From: an uncultured virus (IMG/VR IMGVR_UViG_3300025000_000001)
Lineage: Duplodnaviria; Heunggongvirae; Uroviricota; Caudoviricetes
DNA length: 64,000 nt
Virus record (IMG/VR): IMGVR_UViG_3300025000_000001
Strand: one strand, 5' to 3'
Part shown: piece by piece, positions 10,343 through 63,758 of the stretch
Position numbering within the stretch: position 1 is the first letter of the stretch
Layout of the letters: each line of letters begins with the position of its first letter
The notes under the pieces: model-generated
What the model was told of the DNA's origin: nothing
What the model saw: only the letters and a program-made list of their open reading frames with translations
The model's database searches: none
Program-made: the position numbers and the translations under genes

Positions 10343-13247
10343 AAAAACAAGATTCATTTTTTTTGATGAAATTTGATTCCGGCAGGTTAAAAGACTGCAA
10401 TTACAAAGTAAAAACAAATTTTCAGGAAAGTCAAAAAAATGGAGAATTGATAAGATTAGCAGATAATCAAGTTTTGAGAAGTTTGAGAAAGATCAAAGGA
10501 ATCAATTATAGTCAGGAAGAATTGATTGTTTTGACGAAAGAAAGAAAAAAGATATTCTCTCTACCAAATTCAGAAGAAAATAGAATTAGAGTAAAAGAAT
10601 TATCCAAAGAAATCGAAAAGATGCTTTTTGTTCCTGAAATTGTTTCCGTAAAATTTGAAAACAAAGCACATTATGTTGCCATTAAAAACAGAGGATTGTT
10701 CATCAACGGAATAAAATATACTAGATTATTGGCAGGATCGGGAAATCTAAGAAGAAATACGGTCTTTTATATTGATACAAGATATAAATCAAGGTTGAAT
10801 CAGGTTTTAGACAATGGTCGAGATTTAGAAGCAAATTTAGTACCCGCTAAGTTTTCAGCTTATTACGGACTGTATAACTCGTCATCTTTGGAAGTAGAGT
10901 TTCCCCGCTTTGCAGTTATTCCAGATTGTGAAATAGAGAAAACATTTACTCTTGATTGGGTTTCCGGTTCTGGTAGAGACATTGTGGTAGAAGAAAAAGA
11001 AATTCCTGTAAAACTAAATCTGTTCGATGGGCAGGGGATTATCTCTCCTAATCAAATGTCTGTGTGGGCAGAGAACATGGATTTATCTTACACGCCTTCC
11101 TGGTGTATCGTAAGAGCGCCCTATTTAAAAGGAAATCTTGCCTGTTTTGACTTTCACAGATTTGCCAAAGAAAACGGTAAGAAATATCTTGCCGATGTTT
11201 GGGGCAATCAAATTTTGGTAGATGATGTTGAAATACTCATCTCTACTTCCCAGTTTAAACTTTGGCAATCTTATAAGAGCCTTAAGGACTATCTTGATAA
11301 TTGTAAGAAGAACAATCTGTCGTTTGGTATTACTCGTTATGCTCCCAGTGAAGAAAAAGAGAAGTCTCACACTTATAGCAATTACCAGTTCACTCAGGTT
11401 CTCGATCTAAGCGATGAAGACATTGAAAGTTTCTGTGGGCCAACACTAAAATTAGTTGAAGACCTATCTGGCTTTGATTATGAAAGAATGCTTTTATATC
11501 TTATGGGTGAAGGTATAAATCAGTTAGATGAACATAATTGGTTTGATCGACTTCAAGACCCTGTTGTAAAAGCATTGCTGATCGAGCCAGGATTAAAAGA
11601 GGATGAGTATATTCGACAGAGATTTTCAAGAGGTCTGAATAGATTTATTCGAGAAGCATATTTAGGCTCTACTTTGCACCAGGGAAACTTTTCTGCTATT
11701 TTGAGTGATCCGTATGCCCAATGTGAATGGGCTTTTGGAATGGAACCAAAAGGATTACTGAAAGAGAAGCAGTATTACTCTAACTTCTGGAATAAAAAAG
11801 GAATAAATAAAGTTGCTGCTTGTCGAGCGCCATTAACTCATTATTCAGAAGTAAATATTCTGAATTTCAAAAATGATGAAAAAACAAGAGATTGGTATAA
11901 GAATATTACGAGCGGAACAGTGTTGCCGATTTTGGGAAACGATACGATGATTTTTGCAGATTAGATAAACGCAGTCTGCTTGGTTGGTGACAACCAATAA
12001 ACTACGTGGTGAACCTAGAAATCTAGGGTGTCCGAAAGGGCTAACGGTGAAACTGCCATTCTTGGCACAATACCGTGTCTATCCCCCTCTTTGGGGCAGA
12101 TGTAGAGACTATCCGAAAGGAGTAGCTTTTACGTGAAACTCGTAATTGCGAAGCGCCACGCTCTGCGAAAGCAGATGAAGATATAGTCCGAAAGTGCGAT
12201 TTTGATGGCGACCTAATTTTTACCACCAGTCAATCGGAGTTTATTTCTGGTGCTAAAGGCGGAAAACCGATCTCTTACGAGAAGCGAAGCGCAACAAAAA
12301 TTATTCCAACAGACGATGTAATATCCGATTCTGATCTGGCGGCCATGAATTGTAAAGTTGGATTTATTACCAATGTCAGTTCTACTTATCACTGTATGCT
12401 TAGTGATTACGAGCCGGGATCGTTAGAACATTCCGAAATAGAAAAAAGACTGAAAGCCCTCAGAAGAGAACAGGGAAATACTATTGATGCAGGTAAAGGA
12501 ATCATCGTAGACCCATTTCCAGACCATTGGGTAAAATTCCAAAAACAAAATTCTGAACTTGATGAAGAAATCAGAAAGTTTGAAAACAGATTGCTCGCAG
12601 ATAAAAGACCTCTTTTCTTCATTCACCTATACGCTCATTATAAGCGTAAATTTGTAAAAGAGGTTGAAAATTTTGATGGTTTTCTAAAAATGAAGTACGG
12701 AATATCCCTTTTGTCTTTTATTGGAATGAAGAAAACAGATGAGCAAATTGGTGAGTTGGAAAATTATAGAAGATTTTCTTTTTTTATTGACAATGATTCT
12801 GTGATGAACCGCCTATCGAGATACTTACAGTCTAAAATCAAAGAGATAAGACTAAAAACGAATGATCTTTATTATGATTGGTCTTTTGTTGGCCCAAGAG
12901 AAAACTTTCTTTGGGTTGAGAAATTTTATAAGTCCTATAATTCTCAGAAACAAGTTATCAAAGATTCGGATGAGTTTTCGTCAATCGAACATTATGCTGA
13001 TTTTTTGAGACAGCAGATACTTTCTGAAAACTCATGTCTCTCAGACGCCGCTAAAGATGCGCTCTGGTATTGTTATGTCTACAAAAAATCATCGAACAAG
13101 GAATTTGTCTGGAAAGTCTTCGGAGATGAAATCGTTGACATGCTGCTAGATTTGAATGATCGTTTTGTCAATTTTCCTGAAAAACGTATGGGCGGAAAGA
13201 TTGAATATCTTTGGAATAACTACGAAATAAAATCAACCAAAATATAG
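10339..13247 (+). CDS. yonO: YonO-like single-subunit (double-psi barrel, RdRP-related) RNA polymerase; exons 10339-11961 and 12195-13247, 891 aa spliced
   Basis: FDGQG, VRAPYLKG, SQFK and CRAP motifs; splicing restores IFAD|CDFDGDLIFTT; exon 2 is in frame with ORF 12345-13247. Confidence 0.9.
11962..12194 (+). mobile_element. Group I intron, 233 nt, no ORF
   Basis: P1 GCAGAU/GUCUGC with U.G at the splice site; P10 cgca/tgcg; P3 cgtggt/gccacg; R gtagagacta; S gaagatatagtcc; terminal G12194. Confidence 0.93.
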
Positions 13248-13254
13248 GAGTTCA

Positions 13255-61843: not shown

Positions 61844-61845
61844 AA

Positions 61846-63758
61846 TTATTCCTCAATGGTCATAGACCAATCGCACTTTGAACACTTTTTAACATTTTCA
61901 AATTTCAATATCTGTTCGCCACACTGTGGACACTTATCTTTTCTAACGTTTTTTGGGCTTAGAACTTCTACTTTGCGAGAGCCGTTTCTGTAAGCAGTAA
62001 TTCCCCTGCAACCCATTTCCCAGGCTTTAATAAATGCTTTCTTTACTGTTTCTCTTTGAGTGTGGTTTGGGAAATTGATCGTTTTGGAAACGCCAGAATC
62101 AACAAATTTTTGAGATGAAGCCTGAGTTTTTACATGCTCTTCCCAGGAAACTTCCCTTGCTCCATTGGCGGAAACGGCACATCTAAAATATTCTTTGGAG
62201 GCCAAGTCATTTTCGAATTGATAGCTTCCGGTTTTATCATTGCGAACCGTGATCTCACTAAATACGGGTTCAATTCCGCTGTTGCATCCGGCGATCAGGC
62301 TGATGGTTCCCGTAGGAGCAATCGAAAGCAGAGTAATGTTTCTTCTTGGGACTGGAAGATTATTGCACCATTCGGGAACCCCAAACTCTTGCCCCATCTT
62401 TATGGATTCATCTTCTGCGATTTCATACATGAATTCTAAAACTTGTTCTAGTTTCGCTAAAGCTCGATCTGAGCCATAAGATATTTGCTTTCGAAGATAG
62501 TAGTCTGCAAGACCCATGATACCAAGACCAATTTGACGAGATTTCTTGGACACTTCCTCAATGCCCAGAGTTGGAAATACGTTTTTATCAATTACTGCAT
62601 CTAAAAATCTAACTCCTAACCTTACAGATTTTTCAAACAGTTTCCATTGAAACTTATTTTCATCGTCTAAAAATTTTGAAATATCAATTGAACCTAAGTT
62701 GCAGGAACCATTCGGCGGTAGAGGTTGTTCCAATTTTGTTATCTTGAGAGTTTTTTATCTCTCAATTCTTTATGTCGCCATAAAGTTCGGCATATGTTTT
62801 AAGGCTTTCGCCTTTCGGATACTCTTGGAGGGATTATATTTATTCACCCTCTATGCTCTAGCATGACTGCCCACCTTGCGAAATTGGACAGTTTATGTCG
62901 GCGTTATCCTCTAGGGATTTTCACCGATATTACCCGATTTTAATGCGGCAAACTTTTACCGCATGGATTGCTTGCTTCAATTTTTACACCAGCATAACGG
63001 TATGGGGTATTGTTGTTTATGCTATCAAAAAAAATCAGGCCAGGTTCTCCGTTTTTCCAAGCGCCTTCAATAATCATATTAAAAATATCATCTGCATTAT
63101 ACTCATCATAATAAACTCTTCCAGATTCAAAATCAAAGTAAGTTTTATATGTTTCCTTGTTTACAACCTTTCTCATAAACTCATCATCTACAACAACCGA
63201 GATATTTGTGGTTGTCATCTTTCCTTCTTCTTCTTTTGCTGTTATGAATTTAATGATGTCTGGATGATAGACAGACATTGTTCCCATCATTGCCATTTCT
63301 CGAAAACCAGATTGGGTCATGGCTTTCATATCGTGACAAATTGTATCGAAAAATTTGATAGGCCCACCGGCGTATCCGTGAGCCGAACCTTCCACTTGAG
63401 AATTTTCTGGCCTAATGTGAGATAGGGTAGTTCCGCAACCGCCACCCTTCTTAGCAATTAGTGCAAAATCCAACTTGGTTTTATAAATTTCTTGAATGGT
63501 ATCTTCAAAGCCAACAACAAAGCAAGCTAAAAGACCTCCATTTTTTCTACCGGAATTTACTAGGCAAGGTGAATTGGGAATGAAATATCTGTTGAGCATC
63601 ATTTCCCTGGTAAGTTCTTTATCTTCGGTGTTTTCCTCAAGAACATAATCTATTACTCTATTCGTAACGTCATTCCAGGTGGTTTCCCCTGGAGAAAAAT
63701 AACGCTTCTTTAGGATATTCATTGCAACATCAGAAATTGGTTTCTTTTCTACAAACAC
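61846..63758 (-). CDS. nrdJ: Class II (B12-dependent) ribonucleotide reductase; exons 63758-62958 and 62730-61846, 561 aa spliced
   Basis: PNSP, ACFV, GGGCG, NGEPG, spliced SNPCG|EQPL, CNLGS, APTGTIS, SKTIN, C-terminal CxxC pairs. Confidence 0.9.
62731..62957 (-). mobile_element. Group I intron, 227 nt, no ORF
   Basis: P1 AUGCGGU/GCCGCAU with U.G; P3 tcgggta/tatccga; P7 g(a)gcata/tatgcc; P7.1, P8 and two P9 hairpins; terminal G. Confidence 0.92.

Follow-up and report, generated by a model that had tools for sequence, protein, structure and literature searches.

Polymerases, reductases and terminases have been described as typical targets of phage group I introns (PMC3984707), and several of the reported cases are close to the ones considered here. 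In prophages of the Bacillus cereus group, according to the published account, IA-type introns reside in the tape measure gene (TMP-IVS1-3) and in the terminase gene, several sites can be occupied within one gene, and forms that lack an open reading frame (ORF) occur alongside forms that bear an endonuclease; the E33L lambda01-like prophage has three introns, two in its tape measure gene and one in its terminase gene (PMC2504315). Introns in genes for ribonucleotide reductase (RNR) occur in SPbeta (PMC8270828), and a mobile group I intron that interrupts a two-barrel RNA polymerase gene has been reported from the jumbo phages PhiPA3 (gp210; Birkholz 2024, PMC11620839) and 201phi2-1 (gp273/274; PMC2919709). 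Here we analyze a 64,000-nt stretch of the IMG/VR virus record IMGVR_UViG_3300025000_000001 (henceforth "the window", meaning this whole stretch), which is part of the genome of an uncultured SPbeta-like phage. Three of its essential genes, coding for a YonO-like single-subunit RNA polymerase, the tail tape measure protein and the class II reductase NrdJ, are very probably interrupted by group I introns (I1, I2 and I3, respectively); we put the probability of this reading at about 0.85.

Each of the three genes is found as a pair of neighbouring ORFs, the two members of which match successive parts of a single profile (Pfam, PHROGs): positions 55-532 and 608-820 of phrog_8308 for the polymerase gene, positions 393-773 and 787-1008 of phrog_4211 for the tape measure gene, and positions 2-213, then 214 onwards, of the RNR barrel domain for nrdJ. 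When the exons were joined by script, no internal stop interrupted the resulting frames (891, 1502 and 561 aa), and the spliced polymerase and tape measure products align with uninterrupted homologs, each as a single high-scoring segment pair (HSP) that spans the junction. All three junctions, at the positions set by protein homology, display a U at -1 paired with G, a terminal G of the intron and an adjacent P10 helix, in which the first 4–5 bases of exon 2 are paired with those immediately 5' of the guide strand. All three also have the complete core, with P3-P8 including the P3/P7 pseudoknot, the P4-P6 domain and J8/7; it is supported by covariation in I1 and I3 and by complementarity within the single sequence of I2. 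I1 and I3 begin exactly at the end coordinates (11962 and 62957) given in the first-pass annotation, an earlier reading of the DNA made without database searches. This anatomy, from which we infer splicing itself, suggests that all three are self-splicing introns of the IA type: the ribozyme would fold after transcription, bind free guanosine and cleave after the U of the P1 U.G pair, and the exons would be joined behind the terminal G, with P10 aligning the 3' exon. Splicing would thereby restore ADCDFDGD with the metal-binding aspartates in the polymerase, ..GEAFKTIF.. in the tape measure protein and NPCGEQPL with the catalytic cysteine in the reductase.

Exon 1 of the polymerase gene (10339..11961, plus strand) encodes 541 aa ending in ..TMIFAD. 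In tblastn searches it matched the YonO genes of the SPbeta family (27% identity over residues 115-531, E 1e-22) and Bacillus phage BUCT082, while a sequence search of the PDB with this exon gave no match; 412 homologs were found at E<=1e-10, many of which carry PF05183. A TAG codon stands directly after ..TMIFAD, at the start of I1 (11962..12194, plus strand; 233 nt, without an ORF), and the frame from 12195 reads CDFDGDLIFTTSQ, so that exon 2 (12195..13247, plus strand), recognized from its translation and from the spliced alignment, starts with CDFDGD, the catalytic aspartate triad. Full-length relatives carry ..ADSD(F/Y)DGD.. at this place; the closest of them, P0003 (912 aa, with 60% identity to exon 1), reads FADSDYDGDLVFSTSQ ('ADSDYDGD'), and the spacing across the junction AD|CDFDGD is identical to that of P0003. 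The SPbeta motif DNDGD aligns with CDFDGD of exon 2. The spliced 891-aa product gives one HSP with P0003 (residues 2-886, 54% identity) and matches the SPbetaL2 gene with an E-value of 2e-30.

The jumbo-phage genes mentioned above code for multisubunit beta/beta'-like polymerases and their introns for an HNH endonuclease, whereas the gene considered here is of the single-subunit YonO type and its intron is ORF-less. Another counterpart is found in Clostridium phage c-st, where a YonO-type gene (CST179/CST178) is interrupted in the same catalytic motif. Its record lists separate ORFs ('YonO N-ter only'); according to our analysis positions 2474-5583 of this locus (L003) constitute one gene, and removal of 317 nt (L003 4145-4461) gives a 930-aa frame with DMDGD, which aligns with residues 9-904 of P0003 as one HSP. 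The c-st insert is group I-type and lies at DMD|GD, 12 nt downstream of the window's site.

In I1, P1 (GCAGAU/GUCUGC) holds the last exon base, U11961, in a U.G pair, the terminal G is G12194, and P10 is UGCG/CGCA. The proposed helices comprise P1, P2, P3 (CGUGGUG/CGCCACG), two hairpins between P3 and P4, P4-P6, P7 (GACUA/UAGUC), P7.1, P7.2 and P8; the P4-P5 joiners are the usual GAAA and AAU, and the J8/7 motif is GAAGAUAUAGUCC. The folding z-score is -4.04, with none of 200 shuffles equally stable, and the minimum-energy folds of both I1 and I3 yield most of the proposed helices. I1 has relatives both at nearby yonO sites and among the introns of other phage genes. It was aligned with five introns that occupy nearby yonO sites in other viral contigs: of the cells in the six sequences, 85.9% are paired, versus 35-43% with the partners slid, compensatory changes occur in 35 of 61 pairs, and no shuffle out of 500 reached the observed values. 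Pairing in this family amounts to 95-100% for each of P2, P3, the first extra hairpin, P4, P7 and P7.2.

The usual link between P3 and P4 of group I introns is a 3-nt joiner. Hairpins occupy this place in two of the introns described here, two of them in I1 (window 12014-12041) and one in I2 (50537-50553); the first hairpin of the I1 family is 100% paired, with compensatory changes in 4 of its 5 pairs, and a full-text literature search returned no description of P3.1/P3.2 helices in group I introns. As a separate observation on this locus, a 258-aa gene with no family name lies directly downstream of the polymerase gene (window 13255-14031) and occurs at this position in 61 of the 80 YonO loci, the window's own among them, with an identity of 22-40%; YonO-type polymerases may have a conserved partner in it.

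The tape measure gene is split into exon 1 (49193..50475, plus strand), which matches Pfam PhageMin_Tail and phrog_4211 and whose alignment with the Psychrobacillus phage Perkons tape measure protein extends to ..TIGQSI, and exon 2 (51714..54939, plus strand), which matches phrog_4211 787-1008 and aligns with Perkons from residue 610, beginning with the next residues of that protein, KSILARVQSLK. The junction reads ..GEAF|KTIFARMENIK, with the F codon split as TT|T. Intron I2 (50476..51713, plus strand; 1238 nt) was delimited by helix complementarity, the Perkons junction and the spliced frame. Its P1 (AAGCCUU/GAGGCUU) has U.G at the 5' splice site, its terminal G is G51713, and P10 is UAAAA/UUUUA; the proposed helices comprise P1, P2, P3 (UUUUCUU/AAGAAAA), one P3-P4 hairpin, P4, P5, P6, P7 (GACUA/UAGUC), P8, P9, P9.1 and P9.2. 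P6 (GCGAGUGU/ACACUUGC) encloses ~950 nt including an ORF, J6/7-P7 is GAGAGACUA and J8/7-P7' is GAUGAGAUAGUCC. All 14 of 14 proposed helices are complementary, the strands having been placed by the copies that fit the fold, and only the longer helix strands occur uniquely in the searched region 50461-51730. I2 resembles the B. cereus-group introns in being an IA-type intron in a tape measure gene; a sequence relation to them was not detected by blastn against the phage collection, and I2 carries the gene for a putative I-Bth0305I-like nuclease. Relatives of I2 in this blastn search amount to matches of 40-87 nt only, and a 17-mer scan of viral contigs returned 47 loci, of which two are identical copies and the rest share the J8/7-P7 motif only.

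I2 is the single ORF-bearing intron of the three, as the first-pass annotation had stated. The ORF (50637..51569, plus strand; 310 aa) encodes four CxxC..CxxxC zinc-ribbon repeats followed by a C-terminal nuclease-like domain. Residues 166-270 match PDB 3r3p, 'Mobile intron protein', which we take to be I-Bth0305I of the EDxHD family; there are also weak Pfam matches to MTES_1575 and DUF559, and the PHROG label is 'HNH endonuclease'. We therefore regard the product as a putative I-Bth0305I-like endonuclease. Through this nuclease the tape measure intron could be self-homing. The T4 td intron with I-TevI offers a parallel in its IA-type core, P6-loop ORF and early in-frame stop; the last codons of the I2 ORF overlap the 3' strand of P6, J6/7 and P7, and an ORF end that runs into P6/P7 has been described as 'core creep' in T4 td (PMC3073962). 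The two introns differ in that the T4 nuclease is of the GIY-YIG type and I2 encodes a putative I-Bth0305I-like one, in their host genes, and in the lack of P7.1/P7.2 in I2. A hairpin, UCUCA..UGAGA (window 50610-50636), is located just upstream of the ORF start, over the likely ribosome-binding site; by analogy, it may recall the sequestered ribosome-binding site reported for I-TevI (PMC3073962).

The third gene is encoded on the minus strand. Exon 1 of nrdJ (62958..63758) ends with ..SNPCG and matches positions 3-283 of TIGR02504 (NrdJ_Z) as well as Pfam Ribonuc_red_lgN and lgC, and exon 2 (61846..62730) starts with EQPLPPNGSCNLGS and matches TIGR02504 from position 284, so that the junction SNPCG|EQPLP falls at 283|284 of the model. 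Scored separately and not joined, the exons reach 216.9 and 257.2 bits (cut-off 399.95). The name nrdJ had been assigned at first pass, and it is probably right, because TIGR02504 ranks first for both exons and the closest solved relative is the Thermotoga B12-dependent RNR (PDB 1xjk, E 7e-33). Judging from the sequence of the two exons, splicing would restore the NPCGE motif. SPbeta resembles this phage in having a reductase gene with a group I intron at a conserved site, the reductase being class II NrdJ here versus class Ib NrdE/F in SPbeta. The SPbeta bnrdE/bnrdF introns, together with RNR introns of other Bacillus prophages, were reportedly described by Lazarevic in 1998 and 2001.

I3 (62731..62957, minus strand; 227 nt, without an ORF) has P1 AUGCGGU/GCCGCAU with the U.G pair, the terminal G62731 and P10 GAAC/GUUU. 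Its helices are P1, P3, P4-P6, P7 (GCAUA/UAUGC), P7.1, P8, P9 and P9.1, with P2 absent; the one hairpin between P7 and P3' carries a conserved 14-nt loop. I3 belongs to the same ribozyme family as the introns in the terminase large-subunit genes of Lactobacillus phage JCL1032 and Staphylococcus phages SA2 and SscS-F1: with 72% identity, it matches the intron region of SA2 along 96% of its length and that of JCL1032 along 74%, the terminase coding sequence of JCL1032 being annotated as joined from two pieces. Splicing has been reported for terminase introns of the LL-H type. P3-P9.1 are common to I3 and the terminase introns and covary, with 91.7% of the cells in the four introns paired versus 34-43% when slid, compensatory pairs numbering 33 of 58 and none of 500 shuffles reaching the observed values; the folding z-score of I3 is -5.17, and no shuffle out of 200 is equally stable. 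The host gene is nrdJ rather than terL, and P1 and P10 are re-tailored to NPCG|E. Among the DNA contigs of two metagenome runs (X13 and X10), one record matches I3 only at window 62766-62800 (35 bases of P9/P9.1) and is unlike the window on both flanks of these bases; it may represent another intron of the I3 family elsewhere in those samples.

That the three introns are unrelated and stem from separate invasions was proposed at first pass, and our comparison agrees: the longest match in pairwise blastn is 11 nt, each intron has its own relatives and the peripheral architecture differs. Because the three share no common sequence beyond an 11-mer, separate origins are supported. The accompanying statement that they differ in both peripheral helices and P7 stands for the peripheral helices; the P7 difference applies to I3 only, I1 and I2 sharing GACUA/UAGUC. 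The introns would represent separate arrivals of selfish mobile elements at conserved DNA targeted by homing endonucleases. A motif scan for further pairs of J6/7-P7 and J8/7-P7, crude and made without a covariance model, found none besides the three introns. We also considered the 410-nt gap at 14031-14441 as a further intron and rejected it, since a small ORF lies within it and the two genes beside it occur separately in other loci.

All three introns are in recurrent insertion hot spots. For the YonO family we examined the best 120 proteins (cluster representatives, the window's own included): 70 are at least 850 aa long, 45 have 521-555 aa and end within the catalytic motif, and 5 are of other lengths. 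The ends of those 45 fall after AD, i.e. at the window's site, in 14 proteins (own included), after ADSD in 20 and after ADxDxD in 11. The YonO loci of viral contigs are interrupted in the motif in 16 cases out of 80 (own included) and uninterrupted there in 64, and all breaks outside the window's own locus are downstream of its AD| site. By eye, a U at -1 and a G at the 3' end were recognized in 11 of the 15 other interrupted contigs, with insertions mostly at ADSD|. Of seven ORFs from introns of yonO loci that were tested (six at the motif and one at a second site, described below), six match Pfam at E<=0.01: NUMOD3 is present in four, a weak GIY-YIG match in one and HNH_3/NUMOD4 in the second-site ORF. 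The remaining one, in locus L029, had no Pfam match at this threshold. The second insertion site itself lies near residue 644, ~100 codons past the catalytic motif, and was observed in four contigs (L014, L018, L040 and L045), the insert of L014 containing an ORF with HNH_3/NUMOD4/NUMOD1 endonuclease domains; two 644-aa database proteins end at this site.

A similar picture emerges for the other two genes. Among 120 listed N-terminal NrdJ fragments, from a search restricted to 149-476 aa, the break falls at NPCG| in 16 (the window's own among them), at NPC| in 27 and at NP| in 14, with further ends near residue 160 (23 fragments), near 240 (9) and near 338 (4). Inspection by eye of 37 tape measure fragments assigned 9 to the window's site, 9 to a place ~7 codons upstream, 5 to places further downstream and 4 to places still further upstream; some of these fragment ends are possibly contig ends.

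Crowding of this kind could also be read as a conflict between phages, in which introns act as armour by breaking the recognition sites of endonucleases from co-infecting relatives, and the phage's own nucleases (the I2 endonuclease and two free-standing ones, described below) act as weapons that cut the intronless genes of competitors. The ORF-less introns would then split the most conserved 12–20 bp of yonO and nrdJ and so destroy the target sites of endonuclease-bearing introns that related phages have 3–12 nt away. At distances of 6 and 12 nt in this yonO motif, related phages do possess introns with endonucleases, whose target sites an intron at AD|CD would split, and competition between co-infecting phages through an intron endonuclease directed at a phage RNA polymerase gene was reported for PhiPA3 gp210 (PMC11620839). 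On the other hand, intronless or alternative alleles were not seen, and the persistence of a neutral, splicing-competent intron is explicable without a benefit from armour; we consider this explanation unlikely, if more attractive than collaborative homing (below). With respect to alleles, Logan DNA contigs of four runs, compared with window 44001-64000, contain no joint across I2 or I3, and as such contigs are short and lose rare variants, they are uninformative about intronless forms. If the armour explanation were true, the clusters of sites (AD|, ADSD|, ADxDxD|; NP|, NPC|, NPCG|) would record an arms race between introns and co-infecting phages, and not mere opportunism.

Several observations weigh against our reading of the three genes as intron-containing. 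RF00028 of Rfam scores below its gathering score (50) on all three introns, with 14 bits on I1 (E 0.34) and no match on I2 and I3 in small-region scans at E<=10; according to a 2025 survey, groups of phage introns are under-represented in the covariance models now in use (PMC11878797). The fold of I2 derives from one sequence, its matches elsewhere being identical copies from other samples, and the endonuclease activity of its ORF from a match to a single solved domain with an E-value of 2.8e-5. In I1 the P9 helix is absent, only 6 nt (CGAAAG) separating P7 from the 3' splice site (window 12184-12194), unlike its relatives, which have a P9 hairpin of 30-60 nt, and for this reason the efficiency of its splicing is uncertain. 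Some of the short 'split' family members could be contig-end truncations, and the runs listed for this phage include no RNA run.

The Rfam result at the gathering score, together with the deposited annotation of c-st, in which the two halves of yonO are separate ORFs, would suit naturally split genes or pseudogenes broken by unrelated insertions. In that case, however, the catalytic aspartate triad and the conserved AD that precedes it would fall on different polypeptides; moreover, the in-frame exon junctions coincide exactly with U/G boundaries that have P1 and P10 pairings, the core helices covary, and I3 matches an annotated intron, that of JCL1032. Split genes or pseudogenes are thus scarcely credible here. 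Near-identical DNA is present in groundwater and soil metagenomes: 7 studies contribute the 16 runs listed, 10 of which contain at least 0.93 of the words sampled; therefore the interrupted essential genes belong to a replicating phage.

Group I introns in these genes raise the question of how those without an ORF move, for which the first-pass annotation had pointed to two free-standing genes: 32800..33765 (plus strand, 321 aa; phrog_559 'HNH endonuclease', E 1.7e-48) and 35869..36783 (plus strand, 304 aa; phrog_559, E 1.3e-63). They are paralogs, with 39% identity over 144 aligned C-terminal residues; Pfam identifies treble-clef zinc fingers (DUF4379) only, and no HNH domain at E<=1. The family of the 35869 gene has tblastn matches in 441 phage records and is common in phages of Firmicutes, some records using the labels 'HNH endonuclease' or 'putative group I intron protein'. 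By cutting intronless yonO and nrdJ such nucleases could mobilize I1 and I3, and collaborative or trans homing has been established in other phages (PMC3984707, PMC2790892), where, as described, the process needs a cleavage site near the insertion site and the nuclease is encoded beside the intron-containing gene (PMC2790892). In the window, in contrast, I1 lies 20.6 kb from the start of the 32800 gene and I3 lies 25.9 kb from the end of the other one (36783), distances because of which no co-conversion with the ORF-less introns is expected. The two nucleases also have no similarity (all E>1) to the ORFs within yonO introns of other loci. They bracket a 544-aa gene (33992-35626, phrog_3313; gaps of 227 and 243 nt), an arrangement which suggests that they home at their own locus; the bracketed ORF has no Pfam, NCBIfam or PDB match. 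Collaborative homing as the mobilizer of the ORF-less introns is accordingly disfavoured and, in our opinion, very improbable. I1 and I3 could instead be passengers, which spread via recombination, via a trans-acting endonuclease during co-infection, or not at all.

In agreement with the first-pass annotation, each intron has an in-frame stop 0-7 codons past the 5' splice site: TAG at 11962-11964 (0 codons), TAA at 50498-50500 (7) and, on the minus strand, TAA at 62942-62940 (5). Such a stop would free the ribosomes before the ribozyme gets unfolded, and shielding of the ribozyme from ribosomes by an early stop has been described as a general trait of bacterial and phage group I introns (PMC3073962, PMC3984707). 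The same annotation took the introns to 'gate' transcription, tail assembly and the supply of deoxynucleotides, and suggested a splicing-dependent checkpoint as one possibility for the ORF-less ones. With such a checkpoint, splicing would tie late transcription, tail assembly and the supply of deoxynucleoside triphosphates to the level of guanosine triphosphate or to the state of translation. YonO RNA polymerase was reported to transcribe the late structural operon of SPbeta (PMC8270828), so an intron in its gene would delay all late genes until spliced, and the splicing of T4 introns was found to depend on translation of the upstream exon (PMC3073962, PMC3984707). Nevertheless, because the early stop is a generic device of group I introns it is no sign of a checkpoint; nothing in the sequence indicates regulated splicing, and neither an aptamer nor an alternative splice site nor a regulatory element was found in the introns. 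Most YonO relatives are intronless, as the lengths of the listed proteins (70 of 120) and the viral loci uninterrupted at the motif (64 of 80) indicate, which argues against a conserved regulatory role, and unrelated introns in classic homing hot spots fit opportunistic invasion. We thus regard a checkpoint as quite unlikely.

The window contains the genes expected of a phage, namely those for terminase, portal, tape measure, Dit-like and other tail proteins, and further genes for an integrase, a RuvC-like resolvase, PhoH, MazG and a lysin, as well as one tRNA-Thr (UGU; window 21384-21455, 59.8 bits), the latter being the sole match of Rfam on the whole window, both at the gathering score and at E<=1. 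Proteins of the window are also encoded on contigs of up to 134,910 bp, and identical exon-1 proteins on 20-24 contigs. The nearest record (G001), the only contig recovered by the single-protein locus search, is a 31-kb viral contig identical to part of the window; it contains I1 at 100% identity, does not include the regions of I2 and I3 and, being identical to the window, provides no independent copy of I1. The G+C content is 0.43-0.49 at window 26000-31000 and ~0.36 elsewhere; this region encodes a 756-aa ORF of no known family. A second GH25 lysin-like ORF (28961-29347) is short and covers profile positions 1-120 of 180 only.

Introns in tape measure, terminase, reductase and jumbo-phage RNA polymerase genes are already published. 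For the YonO-type gene, a full-text literature search found no paper describing an intron, and a review of jumbo phages cites the c-st protein with no intron noted (PMC7824862). The three interruptions constitute a clean but ordinary case of a well-known kind of mobile element, and nothing about them points to a new mechanism. Phage group I introns gain a further host gene with the YonO-type polymerase. As these introns escape both gene callers and Rfam, two fragments are reported for each of the three proteins (polymerase, tape measure protein and reductase). This misannotation would extend to many database entries, as 45 of the 120 listed YonO-family proteins stop in the catalytic motif, and c-st has been annotated 'N-ter only' since its deposit. 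Finally, the clusters of adjacent sites, three in DxDGD and three in NPCGE, offer a natural data set on the competition of introns and endonucleases for a few conserved bases.

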